Assembly (NCBI GenBank): GCA_021158405.1
Contig: JAGGUP010000099.1
Coordinates: 1,211 to 65,210 of the forward strand
Reading direction: 5' to 3'
Origin: Bacteroidales bacterium
GTDB lineage: Bacteria > Bacteroidota > Bacteroidia > Bacteroidales > UBA12170
DNA: 64,000 nucleotides
Positions 3,654 through 10,694 of this stretch are shown in pieces; the stretch's first letter is position 1; every line of letters begins with the position of its first letter. The position numbers were made by a program, and so were the translations under genes. The notes beneath the pieces were generated by a model. It ran no database searches. It saw only the letters and a program-made list of their open reading frames with translations, and had not been told where the DNA came from.

Positions 3654-4220
3654 ATGGATTTGGTTACTCTCCTCTTGATTGCTCTCGGATTATCGCTAGA
3701 TAGTTTTGCGGTTTCTTTAGCAAATGGCCTTTCTATTAAAAAATTAAATGCCTGGCTAATTTTCAAATCTTCTGCCAATCTTGCTATTTTTCAAGGGATA
3801 ATGCCTGTGCTAGGTTATTATTTAGCCATTGGATTTCAACACATTATTCAAGATTATGACCATTGGATTGCATTTATTTTGCTTGCATTGATTGGATCAA
3901 AAATGATTTATGAAAGCATCTACCAAAAAGAGTCAATAAAGAAGAAAGGAATCCAATTATCAAGATTACGGCTAGTTGGACAAGGTATTAGCACAAGTAT
4001 AGACGCTCTGGCGATTGGCATAAGTTTTGCCTTTTTAGAAATTGAAATTATCACTCCTGCCATCATCATCTTTGCAGTGACTTTTGTTGCAAGTTTAATT
4101 GGTATTCAAATTGGTAAATATTACGGCAACAAACTAGGAAAGAAAATGGAGTTTCTTGGTGGAATTATCCTTATTGGAATTGGAATTAAGATTTTGATTG
4201 AACACCTTTATTTTCAATAG
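3654..4220 (+). CDS. mntP: Manganese efflux pump MntP family
   Basis: Two DUF204 repeats (LSLDSFAVS; TSIDALAIG), hydrophobic 188 aa. Confidence 0.85.
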   Translation: MDLVTLLLIALGLSLDSFAVSLANGLSIKKLNAWLIFKSSANLAIFQGIMPVLGYYLAIGFQHIIQDYDHWIAFILLALIGSKMIYESIYQKESIKKKGIQLSRLRLVGQGISTSIDALAIGISFAFLEIEIITPAIIIFAVTFVASLIGIQIGKYYGNKLGKKMEFLGGIILIGIGIKILIEHLYFQ

Positions 4221-4244
4221 AATACAGTTTTTTCTCTCAAAATT

Positions 4245-4345
4245 TTCATTGATTTTCGCTGATTCTTTTCTGCGTTTATTTGCGCTATCTGTGGGAAATA
4301 ATTTTTATCACTTCGTCAGCTTTTCTCCTTATCCCTTTTCACTTC
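4245..4345. repeat. Degenerate short-period intergenic repeat between convergent mntP and pepD
   Basis: TGCG/TGTG-cored units in tctgcgtttatttgcgctatctgtggg, followed by a pyrimidine-rich periodic tract. Confidence 0.4.
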
Positions 4346-4356
4346 TTCTCTCCAAA

Positions 4357-5811
4357 CTACTTTACCGTTTTCAAAATATCCAAGGTTAAATCCCAAAACA
4401 TTTGAACTGTTTTTATTTCAATTCGCTCATCCGGAGAATGTGCTCCCTTGATCGTTGGACCGTAAGAAACCATATCCATTTTAGGATAAGTCTTACCAAT
4501 TAATCCACATTCCAATCCCGCATGAACAGCCAAAACTTTTGGTTTCTTTTTAAATAATTTTTCATAAGATAAGCTAGAAACCTCCATAATTTTGGACTTT
4601 GGATTGGGTTTCCAACCCGGATAGCCATCACTATGATTAATTTTTGCACCAGCCAATTTAAAAACGGAGGCAACCATGTTCATAACATCACACTTTGCAG
4701 TCTCTGAACTAGAGCGCTGACTTGTAGTAATCAAAATTTGATTATTCAATGTTTTAACGGCCGCCAGATTAGTGGAAGTTTCAACAAAGTTTGGAATATC
4801 CTGTGACCAAGCAATAACACCATGCGGACAAGCATAAAGCGCATTCAACAAACGATTTTGAAGATCCAAACGGAATACTTTTCTACCATTTTTCAATTCA
4901 CGTAATTCAATGTTTAAATTTGGTTCCGTTACATTTAATTCAACTTTTATATCTTTAGTCATTTGAGATATCATCTTCTCAAAATCACCAACATTTCCTT
5001 TAGGAAGACAAAATTCCGCAAAAGCCTCACGAGCTATAGCATTGCGCAGGTTTCCTCCATCAAATAAAGCTAAACGTAAATCGAATTTTTCTGCTCCTTT
5101 ATACAAAATCCGATTGATTACTTTATTGGCATTCCCATATCCTTTTTGAATATCATCGCCAGAGTGACCTCCACGCAAACCATTTACATCAATTCTATAC
5201 CAGCTCCGATGATCCGAAACATCTTCCCATTCCAAGTCGAAAGCCACATTAGTATCTATCCCTCCTGCACAACCAATAAAAAGTTCGCCTTCATCTTCCG
5301 AATCCAGATTTAGCAATAGTTCACTTTTCAGAAAACTGGATTTCAAACCAAAAGCGCCACTCAATCCTGATTCTTCATCAACAGTAAACAAACATTCTAT
5401 TGGGCCGTGATCAATATCATTGGCAGCTAAAATGGCCAATTGAGTTGCAACTCCAATACCATCATCCGCACCAAGAGTAGTTCCAACAGCTTTTACCCAA
5501 CCATCTTCAATTCGAGTTGAAATTGGATCAGTATCAAAATTATGCTCCACATCACTATTTTTTTCGCAAACCATGTCCATATGACTTTGCATAACAAGCC
5601 ACGGATAATGCTCATATCCTTTAGTTGCATTTTTTCTAATGAGGATATTCCCTACTTCATCTTCTAAAGTTTCAAGATTATATTTAGTACCGAAATCCAA
5701 TAAATAAGCTTTTATTTTTTCTTCTTTTTTGGAAGATCTTGGTATTTGACAAATGTCATCAAAAAATCTCCACACTCCCAAAGGTTGTAACTGTCTGATC
5801 GAATCACTCAT
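4357..5811 (-). CDS. pepD: Aminoacyl-histidine dipeptidase (M20)
   Basis: QSHMDMV, LGADDGIG, FTVDEE, NLDSE and HAGLECG metal-binding motifs. Confidence 0.92.
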   Translation of the reverse strand: MSDSIRQLQPLGVWRFFDDICQIPRSSKKEEKIKAYLLDFGTKYNLETLEDEVGNILIRKNATKGYEHYPWLVMQSHMDMVCEKNSDVEHNFDTDPISTRIEDGWVKAVGTTLGADDGIGVATQLAILAANDIDHGPIECLFTVDEESGLSGAFGLKSSFLKSELLLNLDSEDEGELFIGCAGGIDTNVAFDLEWEDVSDHRSWYRIDVNGLRGGHSGDDIQKGYGNANKVINRILYKGAEKFDLRLALFDGGNLRNAIAREAFAEFCLPKGNVGDFEKMISQMTKDIKVELNVTEPNLNIELRELKNGRKVFRLDLQNRLLNALYACPHGVIAWSQDIPNFVETSTNLAAVKTLNNQILITTSQRSSSETAKCDVMNMVASVFKLAGAKINHSDGYPGWKPNPKSKIMEVSSLSYEKLFKKKPKVLAVHAGLECGLIGKTYPKMDMVSYGPTIKGAHSPDERIEIKTVQMFWDLTLDILKTVK

Positions 5812-6053
5812 GAATTAAAATATAGATTTTATGCCTTTAGACAATAATTAATTTCTGTCGAAGATACATATTTTCCATGAATTGCCCTCTCAAAATTGAT
5901 GGAATTATCGTCATTTAGATAAATATTTGAAAGTAAAAAATAGAAAAAATGCCTTTTTAATCAACAGGTTATTCAATAAAATATGTTAAAAACTTTAATT
6001 TGATTTCGTTTTTTTTGTTCTTTCGCGCAACTAACTTTGAAGAAAACATATTT

Positions 6054-7359: not shown

Positions 7360-8199
7360 ATGAAAGATAAAATAAACAACATCATTCTAGTTCCCACAGA
7401 TTTTTCAGAAGTTTGTGAAAATGCTATAAATCAAGCTGCTGAAGCTGCAAGGTTTTTCAAATATGAATTACATTTGCTCCATGTTATTGATAAAAACACG
7501 AACGCCTACCTTAAAGAAGAAAAATTAGGAATAGATTCTATCTATACACGTTTGCAAGAAATTGCCGATGGATTAATCGCTGAATATGGCATTGAAGTTA
7601 AAATTAAAGCCGAAGATGGTGATATTTTTACTACCATCAATTCTGTTGCACAACATCTTGGCGCCAAACTTGTTTATTTAGGAACACATGGCAAAGTGGG
7701 TATGCAGAAATTAACGGGCAGTTTTGCTTTAAAGGTAATAACTGAATCTCCTGCTCCTGTTATTGTGGTGCAGAAACGTAAATTTAACGAAGGTTTTCGC
7801 AATATTCTATTGCCAATTACGAGCGATGCAGGGCCTTGGGAAAAAACCAATTGGGCCAGCTTTATGGCAAAACAATTGAATGCCAAAATTCATTTATTAA
7901 GCATCCCCGGTAAATCAATCGAGGCAACAACAAAAACACTTACAAAGTATTTTGAAGAGAATAACGTTGAATATACTTCAACTACCGTTGAAAAAGCAGC
8001 AAATTTTTCTCAGCAAGTTATTGATCATGCCACTTCAAACAATTACGATTTAATAATGATTATGACTAATCCGGATACGAGTTGGACAAAATACCTTTTG
8101 GGTTCTTACGACGAAGAAATCATTTTTAACACCTCGCAAATACCTGTAATGTGCATTAATCCAAGGAAATACAACTGGGAAAAAATAATGCAGTATTAG
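7360..8199 (+). CDS. Universal stress protein (tandem Usp domains)
   Basis: ILVPTDFS N-terminus, LGTHG motif, second domain ILLPI...PVMCI. Confidence 0.88.
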   Translation: MKDKINNIILVPTDFSEVCENAINQAAEAARFFKYELHLLHVIDKNTNAYLKEEKLGIDSIYTRLQEIADGLIAEYGIEVKIKAEDGDIFTTINSVAQHLGAKLVYLGTHGKVGMQKLTGSFALKVITESPAPVIVVQKRKFNEGFRNILLPITSDAGPWEKTNWASFMAKQLNAKIHLLSIPGKSIEATTKTLTKYFEENNVEYTSTTVEKAANFSQQVIDHATSNNYDLIMIMTNPDTSWTKYLLGSYDEEIIFNTSQIPVMCINPRKYNWEKIMQY

Positions 8200-8252: not shown

Positions 8253-8861
8253 CTATATTTCCACCAAATAAGATTCCGCCTCAGGACCAAGATTAAAAAT
8301 CAGATCCAATATACTTAGATTTTCAAAAAACGGATATTGATCGGAAAATACTTGAATATAGCGTGATAAGCCAAGTGGATGAGCATCCTTTGGAGATAGC
8401 AAGAATCGTTTATCTTCTTGTACAGAAAGTTTATTAGGAAAAACAAATGTTTCTGTACGTTTAACATTTATATCCCACTCCATTAAGCTATTTATCAATT
8501 GAATAATTGCTTCATTCAAATCAAGCAAAAAGGGATGTTTCTTGCTAAAAAATTCTGCCATCTCATCTTGATAATAAAGCAAAAACGGAGATGAATTATA
8601 AGCTGTTTTAATGCTTCGCCAATGCAATTGTTGCCAAGGTTCTTTGTAAGATATTTGTATATCACGTGTGATTGTTTTATTTCCATACGGTTTTATAACC
8701 GGTACTGATAAAGACTGCAAACCATTGGCCGACAGAATGACACACCTATTCCGATAAGTTTGTTTCGGAAAAGTCTCAAACTGTTCCACAAGAGTATTCT
8801 TACTTTGGAACAACCAAGCATAATGCAATATGGGCGGAAAATATGCGGTTGAAACTAGCAT
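8253..8861 (-). CDS. WbqC family protein
   Basis: STAYFPP, KQTYRNRC, AYNSSPF and LSILDLIFNLGPE motifs. Likely start ATG at 8861. Confidence 0.85.
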   Translation of the reverse strand: MLVSTAYFPPILHYAWLFQSKNTLVEQFETFPKQTYRNRCVILSANGLQSLSVPVIKPYGNKTITRDIQISYKEPWQQLHWRSIKTAYNSSPFLLYYQDEMAEFFSKKHPFLLDLNEAIIQLINSLMEWDINVKRTETFVFPNKLSVQEDKRFLLSPKDAHPLGLSRYIQVFSDQYPFFENLSILDLIFNLGPEAESYLVEI

Positions 8862-8942: not shown

Positions 8943-9293
8943 TTATTTCAATAATACATCGTTGATAGCCGAAATCAAGGTTTCTTTTGGTAAAGCACCC
9001 TGAGCCATTTGTGGTTGTCCATCTTTAGGGCAAAACAATAAAGAAGGAATACTTTTAATACCAAATGCACCGGCTAATTCTTGCTGGTCTTCGGTATCAA
9101 CCTTATAAATATTAATCTTTCCCTCATATACTTTGTCTAATTCCTCCAAAATTGGAGCAACCATTTTACAAGGCTGACACCAATCTGCGTAGAAATCAAT
9201 TAAACAAGGAAGTTCGCCTTCGAATTTCCAATCTTTGTTTTCTTCAAAATTAAATACTTTTTCTAAAAATACTGCTTTTGTTAAATGTTCCAT
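8943..9293 (-). CDS. trxA: Thioredoxin
   Basis: DFYADWCQPC active site and cis-Pro loop SIPS. Confidence 0.85.
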   Translation of the reverse strand: MEHLTKAVFLEKVFNFEENKDWKFEGELPCLIDFYADWCQPCKMVAPILEELDKVYEGKINIYKVDTEDQQELAGAFGIKSIPSLLFCPKDGQPQMAQGALPKETLISAINDVLLK

Positions 9294-9332: not shown

Positions 9333-9848
9333 TTATTCTTCAATTTTTTTGTTTCCTAAAACAAACTCTTCAATAATTTTTTTGTATTGTTCTTCTTGCA
9401 TAGCTCCTGGTTGCATAGCTGGCTTCCCATTTTTAGGAATAAACATTACAGAAGGAATGGATTGAATTCCGAAAACGGAACTTAATTCGCGATTAGCATC
9501 GGTGTCTACTTTGTAAATTATTACTTTTCCGTTGTATTCCTGAGCAAGTTTTTCCATAATAGGTGCTACACGTTTACAAGGACCACACCAATCGGCGTAA
9601 AAATCGATGACAGCAGGCAACTCTCCTTCGTAAATCCATTCCTGAGGATTCTTGTTATAATCCCAAACCAAGGAACGAAAACTTTCCTCATTTAAATAAA
9701 CTACAGATTCCACATCCTCTGTTGCTGTTAAACTCACTGATTTCTCATTATTTTCTTTCGATATGCCTTTTTCAGCGGCATTCGAATTACAAGCTGTAAA
9801 ACCAAGATTTAATGATAGTGCAAGTAATAAGACTCCTAATTTTTTCAT
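9333..9848 (-). CDS. Thioredoxin with N-terminal lipoprotein signal
   Basis: WCGPC active site. MKK, hydrophobic stretch, then lipobox-like FTAC at Cys20. Confidence 0.85.
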   Translation of the reverse strand: MKKLGVLLLALSLNLGFTACNSNAAEKGISKENNEKSVSLTATEDVESVVYLNEESFRSLVWDYNKNPQEWIYEGELPAVIDFYADWCGPCKRVAPIMEKLAQEYNGKVIIYKVDTDANRELSSVFGIQSIPSVMFIPKNGKPAMQPGAMQEEQYKKIIEEFVLGNKKIEE

Positions 9849-9950
9849 TCTTTTTTGTTTATTCGTTTCTTAAAAGCGTGCAAAAGTAATAAATATTTTT
9901 AAATCGCTTTAATATCACTATTCTTTTCAATATTTATGCCAAAAGTATTT

Positions 9951-9960
9951 TATCTTTGCA
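9951..9960 (+). promoter_or_regulatory. Bacteroidota primary-sigma -7 box
   Basis: TATCTTTG(CA) matches TAnnTTTG, upstream of the 10031 and 10171 ORFs. Confidence 0.55.
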
Positions 9961-10030
9961 TACGACACATTGGCAGAATGTAATTTGGCAATTAATTAAC
10001 TTTTGACAATTTAAGATCAAAAAGTAATTT

Positions 10031-10171
10031 ATGAAGGAGTTAAAAAAAACAGCCTTTACAAGTAAATTGATATACAAAGGATTGATACTAATGAACATTC
10101 TAACGAATGCTTATCCAGAAAAATCTCTAGGTATCATTCAGACTGACTGTAAAAAACAAATTGTAATCTGA
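10031..10171 (+). CDS. Possible 46-aa leader ORF coupled to the next gene
   Basis: Reads MKELKKTAFTSKLIYKGLILMNILTNAYPEKSLGIIQTDCKKQIVI. Its TGA (10169-10171) overlaps the ATG at 10171. Confidence 0.3.
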   Translation: MKELKKTAFTSKLIYKGLILMNILTNAYPEKSLGIIQTDCKKQIVI

Positions 10172-10593
10172 TGAAGAAATTATTTAAAAATATCGATATA
10201 AAAGAATTCGACTCGCGTTTTTCAAGTGAAGAACAATGTCTAAAATTTCTTGTCAATAATAAATGGAAAAATGGTTTTATTTGTCGAAAATGTGGCCATA
10301 CAAATTACTGCGAAGGGCAAGTGCCCTTTTCCAGGCGTTGCACTAAATGCAAGCATCAGGAATCAGCCACTGCCCACACTATTTTTCATCGATGCAAAAT
10401 CCCTATTCAGGAAGCATTTAAAATTACCTATTTGGTTTGTACCTCACCTAACATCTCCAGTTATGAAATATCTCGCCGAATTGATATCCGTCAAATGACT
10501 TGTTGGAAATTTAAAAAGAAAATAACAGAATGCATCGATAAGCGAGGCGATTTAAATGTGATTCAAAAAGAAGAAATTAAGCAGAAAATTTGA
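10171..10593 (+). CDS. IS1595-like transposase N-terminal zinc-ribbon/HTH protein with no DDE domain
   Basis: EFDSRFSSEEQCLKFL..KW..GFICRKCGH...RRCTKCKHQESATAHTIFHRCKIP is the IS1595 Zn-ribbon. SSYEISRRIDIRQMTCWK is HTH-like. The ORF stops at 140 aa. Confidence 0.75.
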   Translation: MKKLFKNIDIKEFDSRFSSEEQCLKFLVNNKWKNGFICRKCGHTNYCEGQVPFSRRCTKCKHQESATAHTIFHRCKIPIQEAFKITYLVCTSPNISSYEISRRIDIRQMTCWKFKKKITECIDKRGDLNVIQKEEIKQKI

Positions 10594-10694
10594 GTGAACT
10601 AGAGTTTGAAGTGAGCTAAAGTTAGGCAAACTTACCAACTCAACAATTTAACAACTCTACAACTCAACCTCTCTACAACTCAACCTCTCAACTC
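10592..10694. repeat. 8/16-bp-period tandem repeat with a loosely complementary left arm
   Basis: CTCTACAACTCAACCT occurs twice in exact tandem (10655-10670, 10671-10686) with flanking CAACTC units. A GAGT-rich arm lies at 10592-10626. Confidence 0.65.

Follow-up and report, generated by a model that had tools for sequence, protein, structure and literature searches.

Introduction

Transposon-derived modules that target nucleic acids have repeatedly been exapted as transcription factors, as in the THAP, FHY3/FAR1, and CENP-B types of eukaryotes and in the bacterial TldR, which is derived from TnpB. Transposition itself may be repressed by an N-terminal DNA-binding protein encoded within an insertion sequence (IS), of which the IS1 InsA type is an example. 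Thioredoxin or peroxidase genes are controlled by thiol-based regulators, including RsrA-SigR, Spx, OxyR, OhrR, and the ArsR/CstR-type sensors. This study is focused on a gene located at positions 10171–10593 of a 64-kb stretch of a Bacteroidales contig (JAGGUP010000099.1; the whole stretch, of 64,000 nucleotides, is referred to as the window, and its positions are used throughout). Its product, for which the working name ZnR is used, is a stand-alone protein composed of a zinc ribbon and a helix-turn-helix (HTH) of the type found in IS1595 transposases. On balance, the comparisons described below favor the reading that a domesticated transposase DNA-binding domain acts here as a thiol-sensing transcription factor for the divergent thioredoxin operon. 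Such a protein would share with THAP, FHY3/FAR1, CENP-B, and TldR the reuse of a transposon-derived nucleic-acid-targeting module for host regulation, whereas its origin is the DNA-binding domain of an IS1595 DDE transposase and its target would be recognized by the protein and not by a guide RNA.

Domain Composition and Conservation of ZnR

The gene and its downstream neighbor are arranged as follows.

10171–10593, plus strand: ZnR gene, an intact open reading frame (ORF) with an ATG start, encoding 140 amino acids (aa)
end at 10688, minus strand: UbiA-family (menA-like) gene, convergent to the ZnR gene, leaving a 94-bp gap after the ZnR stop codon (10593)

Residues 19–63 of ZnR match the Pfam profile Zn_ribbon_IS1595 (PF12760) with an E-value of 2.2e-9 and a score of 37.6 bits against a gathering cut-off of 25.4, and the ribbon cysteines are arranged as C38-R-K-C41 and C57-T-K-C60. 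An intact 140-aa ORF carrying CRKC and CTKC cysteines had been read at this position in the original prediction, which was made from the sequence alone, and both features are borne out. The HTH of IS1595 type that was also claimed there stands in part: NF033547 of NCBIfam (“IS1595 family transposase”) matches ZnR residues 75–127 through profile positions 2–56 of 215 only, i.e., the HTH stretch without the catalytic part, and the score of 29 bits lies far under the cut-off of 75. In the AlphaFold2 (AF2) model of ZnR (pLDDT 82, pTM 0.71), helices are predicted at residues 79–91, 97–104, and 112–124 of this region, in which the motif R107-Q-M-T-C-W112 is invariant in the ZnR family.

The catalytic half of a transposase is absent. 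DDE_Tnp_IS1595 (PF12762) has no Pfam match in ZnR, so that the domain pattern anticipated earlier, a ribbon without a DDE domain, is confirmed, and the 94-bp gap to the convergent gene leaves no room for one, as had been argued. No IS-type terminal inverted repeats or duplications were found flanking the ZnR gene, in agreement with the earlier reading, and neither a second ZnR copy nor a DDE or IS1595 transposase was found elsewhere in the 64-kb window. In the relatives, no DDE relic was detected 3′ of the ZnR stop codon; tblastn extensions in two loci (L032 and L021) were considered as DDE remnants and rejected, because they are low-identity read-through across stop codons. Of the four hallmarks of an IS1595 insertion sequence, only the zinc ribbon is present in ZnR, which has no DDE domain, no inverted repeats with target duplication, and no sign of mobility.

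A search of 5.8 billion proteins yielded 603 close homologues, of which the best 120 cluster representatives were compared in detail. Length is conserved among these representatives, as had been expected for a host gene: they comprise 132–169 aa, 50 of them exactly 142 aa, with PF12760 as the sole domain. They are 58–100% identical to the window ZnR and down to 48% identical to one another, and ten cysteines (positions 23, 38, 41, 47, 57, 60, 75, 90, 111, and 121) and H73 are invariant in all 120. In a scan with one genome per species, at least 572 species genomes carry a ZnR relative; the carriers are mostly Bacteroidales in the GTDB sense, including Prolixibacteraceae, Lentimicrobiaceae, Draconibacterium, and others. 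The ratio of nonsynonymous to synonymous substitution rates (dN/dS), for which a value below 1 had been proposed as a check, is 0.03–0.15 between the window gene and its relatives, and over 33 usable pairs it ranges from 0.02 to 0.25 with a median of 0.13, the synonymous sites being mostly saturated.

By contrast, the full-length IS1595 relatives are true multi-copy ISs. A single protein is found on up to 54 contigs in varied insertion contexts, and these contigs are typically about 1 kb long because the assembly breaks at repeats. The nearest of them is bounded by a perfect 13-bp terminal inverted repeat, TTGAATTAGGCAT, the ends having been defined from four insertion contexts, and the nearest full-length transposases are only about 44% identical to ZnR over about 125 aa. 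ZnR resembles them in the CxxC…CxxC ribbon, in the conserved C23, and in the T-C-W motif, followed by the HTH; it differs in lacking the DDE domain, inverted repeats, and target duplication, in its single copy on long contigs, in its fixed neighborhood and strong purifying selection, and in three additional family-specific cysteines, and the true relatives carry the 13-bp inverted repeat TTGAATTAGGCAT.

These observations bear directly on the simplest alternative, in which ZnR is an IS1595 remnant or an InsA-like trans-inhibitor of transposition without a host function. ZnR is indeed homologous to a transposase N-terminus, and public records name it “transposase”; yet its length, synteny, and sequence are kept across hundreds of species with dN/dS well below 1, it is single-copy on long contigs whereas the DDE-bearing relatives are multi-copy with 13-bp inverted repeats, and the window contains no IS1595 and no inverted repeats, its neighbors being thiol genes and not IS ends. 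This alternative is accordingly regarded as extremely improbable. The comparison with InsA is instructive: ZnR is likewise a small zinc-finger and HTH part of a transposase and would repress at a specific DNA site, but InsA-type proteins are encoded inside an IS and bind its ends, whereas ZnR is a host gene with a candidate host operator at thiol-stress promoters. The trans-inhibitor of IS1595 elements entertained in the original prediction is thus disfavored, since no IS surrounds ZnR and the element described below is unlike the inverted repeats of related ISs. A close, near-identical full-length IS1595, which would have pointed to a simple IS remnant, was not found: the closest is about 44% identical and none lies in the window. 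ZnR is therefore almost certainly a domesticated host gene. Because the tests of length, selection, and synteny agree with a host regulator and the sign of a simple IS remnant is lacking, that earlier suggestion is well supported by the comparative evidence, with DNA binding and regulation as its proposed part.

The 19-bp Element and the Divergent Promoters

The region upstream of ZnR contains the following features.

9901–9919, plus strand: 19-bp element AAATCGCTTTAATATCACT, candidate operator between the divergent promoters; consensus T-AAATCGCnTnAnTATCACT
9881–9888, minus strand: CAAAAGTA (= TACTTTTG on the minus strand), −7 box (TAnnTTTG) of the thioredoxin operon, separated by 12 nt from the left edge of the element
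9951–9958, plus strand: TATCTTTG, Bacteroidota −7 box (TAnnTTTG) proposed for ZnR, to the right of the element at a distance of 31 nt; also present in the four closest relatives (L001–L004)
9963–9975, no strand assigned: CGACA-cat-TGGCA, an imperfect palindrome that follows closely on the plus-strand −7 box
9333–9848, minus strand: thioredoxin gene 2, 171 aa, with a lipoprotein-type signal peptide ending at Cys20 and a WCGPC active site
8943–9293, minus strand: thioredoxin gene 1, 116 aa, without a signal peptide, with a WCQPC active site

The window was compared with a synteny set of 80 related loci. In the window and in 77 of these 80 loci, ZnR is directly preceded, on the opposite strand, by two or, in some cases, three thioredoxin genes; in the three others, contig ends leave less than 310 nt of upstream sequence and cut the thioredoxin genes off. 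Thioredoxin gene 2, the proposed target of ZnR, is the first of the operon and is followed by thioredoxin gene 1, which is 71–93% identical across the 77 loci. Conserved synteny with both trx and menA had been envisaged in the original prediction. The thioredoxin part holds, whereas menA and menB adjoin ZnR only in the four closest relatives (4/80 loci) and were ruled out as members of a conserved unit. The thioredoxin genes are kept and the genes downstream of ZnR vary; therefore, the conserved unit consists of the thioredoxin genes and the divergent ZnR gene.

The space between them holds a 19-bp element, which had been overlooked earlier, as had six of the ten invariant cysteines. The consensus T-AAATCGCnTnAnTATCACT occurs upstream of ZnR in all 81 loci, once in each and always in one orientation, with no mismatches in the window copy, and it reads as a direct repeat, ATCGC/ATCAC, with the two units 11 bp apart. 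A position weight matrix built from the element sites scores 33.8 bits at 9899–9921; the next best score in the 64-kb window is 11.2, so that further operator sites there were dismissed. No second site of at least 17 bits was found in 794 kb of the 80 related loci.

The element is flanked on both sides by −7 boxes. A minus-strand TAnnTTTG, read as CAAAnnTA, lies 15–17 nt to its left in 61 of 77 sites and 12 nt to its left in the clade of the window, and a plus-strand TAnnTTTG lies 5–9 nt to its right in 65 of 77 sites and unusually far, at 31 nt, in that clade. The latter is the promoter box already recognized at 9951. In this arrangement, the element covers the −33 region of both promoters, which stand back to back. 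As a separate observation confined to the clade of the window, a second CAAAAGTA (minus-strand TAnnTTTG) is located right of the element at 9940–9947, beside the plus-strand box, and could represent an extra thioredoxin-directed promoter. Downstream of the plus-strand box, half-sites of the TGNCA type occur at 9963–9975 and 9985–10012. In 18 of 81 loci (0.08 expected), the 200 nt that precede the ZnR start contain the pattern TGNCA-N3-TGNCA, and the palindrome at 9963–9975 is possibly a second, putative operator.

Two divergent transcripts are visible in metatranscriptomes that contain a homologous Lentimicrobium locus (L041); for the organism of the window, which is known from hydrothermal-vent metagenomes, no RNA runs are listed. 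In two independent runs, the RNA contig over the thioredoxin genes of L041 ends at 5838 or 5842, just past the thioredoxin −7 box, and in one of these runs the ZnR contig begins at 5936, divergent to the thioredoxin transcript. The gap between the transcripts contains the element (5885–5903) and both −7 boxes (5862–5869 and 5912–5919). Contig depth, a rough measure of expression, is near 80 over the thioredoxin genes and near 7 over ZnR. Taken together, promoter architecture and synteny make it fairly probable that ZnR is a transcription factor acting at the 19-bp element.

Distribution of the Element in Metagenomes

An exact-pattern scan of metagenome contigs (loci L081–L200; the counts given in this section are among the matches listed) yielded at least 122 element sites. 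Approximately 31 of these adjoin a ZnR homologue, 24 of them with a divergent lipoprotein thioredoxin gene. The remaining ZnR-adjacent sites belong to a stand-alone ZnR subfamily of 144 aa, which is 47–51% identical (L151, L158, L163, L185, L193, L117, and L200); here the ZnR gene is divergent to a gene for an ArsM-like S-adenosylmethionine (SAM) methyltransferase, OsmC, or a membrane-anchored thioredoxin, and the element is often present as two tandem units with a period of about 20 bp. Approximately 35 further sites are found in a Bacteroidota promoter context with no ZnR gene nearby. The genes that follow these sites encode membrane-anchored thioredoxins, a YgaP-like membrane protein of 67 aa, divergent OsmC/DUF302 pairs, a Cys-rich DUF6132 protein, a thioredoxin-like protein of 116 aa, a thioredoxin–glutaredoxin fusion, and ArsM-like methyltransferases. 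The leftover sites number 39 by gene-neighbor labelling, whereas 59 sites have neither −7 box; they resemble chance matches and are for the most part located within apparent coding DNA. Judged by the identity of the linked genes, the element is the signature of a candidate stress regulon of the thiol, oxidant, sulfur, or arsenic type. No regulator-like gene other than ZnR is repeatedly found next to it.

The distribution also leaves room for a different reading, namely that the element is bound by an unlinked regulator and that ZnR is just another member of the thiol-stress regulon, which might serve as a zinc-thiolate redox protein, as a client of thioredoxin, or as a chaperone that no longer binds DNA. 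Such a reading accommodates the promoter-context copies on contigs without a nearby ZnR gene and the very Cys-rich nature of the protein, and it draws on the fact that the binding of ZnR to DNA is itself deduced. Nevertheless, among regulator-like genes only ZnR repeatedly adjoins the element, in 81/81 genome loci and in two metagenome subfamilies; R107, Q108, T110, C111, and W112 are kept, with some substitution, across transposases, sensor fusions, and ZnR; the module is the only candidate output domain of the membrane sensors described below; and an asymmetric bipartite site fits a monomeric binder with two subdomains. An unlinked regulator is consequently considered unlikely, and ZnR itself is retained as the preferred candidate for binding the element.

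Cysteine Residues and the Proposed Mechanism

The original prediction placed a potentially redox-sensitive site in the zinc ribbon; this now seems the less likely place, the likelier redox feature being the extra cysteines. C23, the four ribbon cysteines, and C111 are common to ZnR and the sensor fusions, and position 111 is a cysteine in about half of the transposases. C47 is invariant in the ZnR family (120/120) and variable outside it. C75, C90, and C121 are specific to the thioredoxin-linked family and are replaced in transposases and sensor fusions by L/I/V, S/Y/T, and A, respectively. In the AF2 model, C75 is located just before helix 79–91, C90 at the end of the same helix, and C121 within helix 112–124; these residues might form a second metal site or a disulfide switch. 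From this residue pattern, thiol sensing by ZnR through its extra cysteines is a plausible suggestion with a little less than an even chance of being correct.

From these comparisons, we infer that ZnR binds the element, in which direction it regulates, which signal it senses, and what its cysteines contribute. In the proposed mechanism, the N-terminal zinc-ribbon and HTH module of an IS1595-family transposase would have been retained without its catalytic domain as a single-copy host gene. ZnR would bind the asymmetric 19-bp element AAATCGCnTnAnTATCACT in the −33 region of the two back-to-back Bacteroidota promoters, with one half-site read by the ribbon and the other, a helical turn away, by the HTH, and would thereby regulate both the thioredoxin operon divergent to it and its own expression. 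Its targets in other genomes would further include the element-bearing promoters of the genes for membrane-anchored thioredoxin, OsmC, DUF302, YgaP-like, and DUF6132 proteins and the ArsM-like methyltransferase. The signal would be thiol chemistry, i.e., oxidant, reactive sulfur, or arsenite-type stress, acting on C47, C75, C90, and C121 and altering DNA binding. In its simplest form, ZnR would be a repressor released upon thiol modification, because the element overlaps the −33 region of both promoters. Activation is also possible, because neither promoter has a clear TTTG −33 box on direct reading of the sequence. The proposal resembles the known thiol-based regulators in that reactive cysteines would be coupled to thioredoxin, OsmC/Ohr-type, and arsenic or sulfur genes and in that the regulator is divergent to its target and probably autoregulated; by contrast, the fold and ancestry of ZnR are unrelated to theirs, its operator is asymmetric and not palindromic, and its sensing is a proposal.

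A small protein rich in cysteine and zinc beside thioredoxin genes also recalls the RsrA-SigR-trxBA logic, and ZnR might instead regulate through protein–protein contacts, either as a zinc-associated anti-sigma factor (RsrA-like) or, in the manner of Spx, by switching RNA polymerase in response to redox state, and thioredoxin would close the feedback loop. However, no sigma-factor gene is conserved nearby, the conserved neighbors being only the thioredoxin and WbqC-like genes; the H-x3-C-x2-C motif is absent from ZnR by inspection of its sequence; and ZnR is homologous to a DNA-binding transposase domain. Regulation by protein contacts is thus deemed highly unlikely.

Several observations weigh against a thiol-sensing transcription factor at the element and are gathered here. 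When ZnR was compared with the PDB by fold and by sequence, the sole match was to the zinc ribbon of NudC (E = 0.4) and no relative was found by sequence, and the HTH assignment draws on homology to transposase HTHs and on the AF2 model (pLDDT 82), without a solved homologue. The element is also found far from any ZnR gene, at the approximately 35 promoter-context sites mentioned above; therefore, its binder could be another factor. No resemblance to the 19-bp element is seen in TTGAATTAGGCAT, the 13-bp inverted repeat that bounds the nearest full-length IS; a descent of the operator from IS ends was thus ruled out, and the DNA specificity is therefore not traceable to the IS ancestor. The 144-aa subfamily keeps C75 and C90 but has alanine at position 121. 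Finally, one RNA contig of a third run (X17) spans the L041 intergenic region, and contig depth is a poor guide to expression.

The Ribbon–HTH Module in Membrane Sensors

An exhaustive profile search with the ZnR module (about 125 aa) yielded 8,876 matches at E ≤ 1e-3, and the architectures of the best 150 representatives were counted. Thirty are stand-alone proteins of up to 180 aa. In 17 others, which are about 300 aa long, the module is followed by at least 120 aa at the C-terminus, as it is in the DDE transposases that were part of the scanned set. In 72 long proteins (within P0134–P0270), the module is located at the C-terminus: 69 of them are receptors of about 600–650 aa with 7TMR-DISMED2 and 7TMR-DISM_7TM domains and a coiled-coil linker, and three are proteins of about 1050 aa with a Reg_prop beta-propeller and Y_Y_Y. 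The ribbon–HTH module is the only cytoplasmic domain of these 7TMR-DISM and beta-propeller membrane sensors, which are found in Pedobacter, Mucilaginibacter, Sporocytophaga, and Cytophagaceae. They are publicly named “7TM-DISM protein,” “transposase,” “ParA” (chromosome partitioning protein), or “LadS,” whereas public records call the stand-alone proteins “transposase,” “hypothetical protein,” or “sensor histidine kinase LadS”; the latter names, and “transposase” and “ParA” for the sensor fusions, look like annotation errors carried over from the common domain.

Nine sensor loci were examined (L209–L217). A SusC-type gene is located just downstream of the sensor gene in six of them, and in five SusD can be seen as well; in L215, the sensor and SusC-type genes are separated by a ThuA gene. 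Two more adjoin glycoside hydrolase (GH) genes, namely GH3 in one and GH81 and GH16 in the other. The susC upstream regions of the six loci are as follows.

L209, 5909–6222: susC upstream region of a sensor locus
L210, 5927–6243: susC upstream region of a sensor locus
L214, 5810–6086: susC upstream region of a sensor locus
L215, 6716–7068: susC upstream region of a sensor locus
L216, 5885–6189: susC upstream region of a sensor locus
L217, 5924–6504: susC upstream region of a sensor locus

All six contain same-strand copies of AAGCGTATC(A/G), which are paired 78–92 bp apart in four or five of them. SCGTATC is present nine times in these 2,147 nt, where 0.12 copies would be expected, and the opposite strand has none. 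Both the susC repeats and the ZnR element, AAA(T/G)CG(C/T)-N5-TATCAC, contain the half-sites AAGCG and TATCA, with different spacing; this resemblance may reflect shared recognition and is a lead, not proof. Because the module is the sole cytoplasmic part of the sensors and related DNA repeats accompany them, it is most simply read as a DNA-binding output domain. The sensor fusions appear to form a hitherto undescribed class of regulators for polysaccharide utilization loci (PULs). They resemble the hybrid two-component PUL regulators in their periplasmic glycan-type domains (7TMR-DISMED2, Reg_prop, and Y_Y_Y) and in their SusC/SusD neighbors; they differ in that their output is the ribbon–HTH module instead of a kinase, a receiver, and AraC. 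With about equal chances for and against, the ribbon–HTH module may constitute an unrecognized class of DNA-binding domain of bacterial transcription factors, exapted repeatedly in Bacteroidota for a thiol-stress regulator and for PUL sensors and reading AAGCG/TATCA half-sites.

Other Features Around the ZnR Gene

One further gene recurs at this locus.

8253–8861, minus strand: WbqC-like gene with a Pfam match (PF08889), often downstream of the thioredoxin genes

A WbqC-like gene follows the thioredoxin genes in 63 of 80 loci (60 loci by clustering). In L041, no RNA contig covers the WbqC-like gene (4020–4667); the gene may therefore be a transcription unit separate from the thioredoxin genes, which the RNA contigs do cover. 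A tandem gene for a universal stress protein (Usp) lies upstream of it at 7360–8199 in the window and is kept in the four closest relatives only.

A 46-aa ORF at 10031–10171 precedes ZnR, and its stop codon overlaps the start codon of ZnR (TGATG). Because it sits in a leader segment of about 150 nt that is missing from the closest relatives and has no Pfam match, this ORF is unlikely to be a gene. At the other end of ZnR, the gap between the convergent ZnR and menA-like genes is filled by a short tandem repeat, CAACTCAA, with about 7 copies at 10636–10692, within which a 16-nt unit, CTCTACAACTCAACCT, can be read in 2.2 copies. No significant terminator or hairpin was found 3′ of the ZnR gene (z = −1.0).

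Perspectives

In full-text searches of the literature, no description was found of an IS1595-derived regulator, of a thioredoxin-linked ZnR family, or of 7TMR-DISM sensors with a ribbon–HTH output, and a search for PF12760 gave one match, which lists the domain merely as a transposase marker. Annotation as “transposase,” “hypothetical,” “LadS histidine kinase,” or “ParA” hides a widespread family of probable regulators and inflates the counts of mobile elements. If the proposed function is true, ZnR would represent a rare bacterial exaptation of the DNA-binding domain of a DDE transposase into a host transcription factor, and it would come with a ready-made operator and a candidate thiol, sulfide, or arsenic stress regulon in the anaerobic Bacteroidota of sulfidic vents, sediments, and digesters. 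Furthermore, if the same holds for the membrane sensors, the module would be the missing output domain of the 7TMR-DISM sensors located beside SusC/SusD and would define a new class of PUL regulator, in a field of regulation that is widely followed in gut and environmental Bacteroidota.

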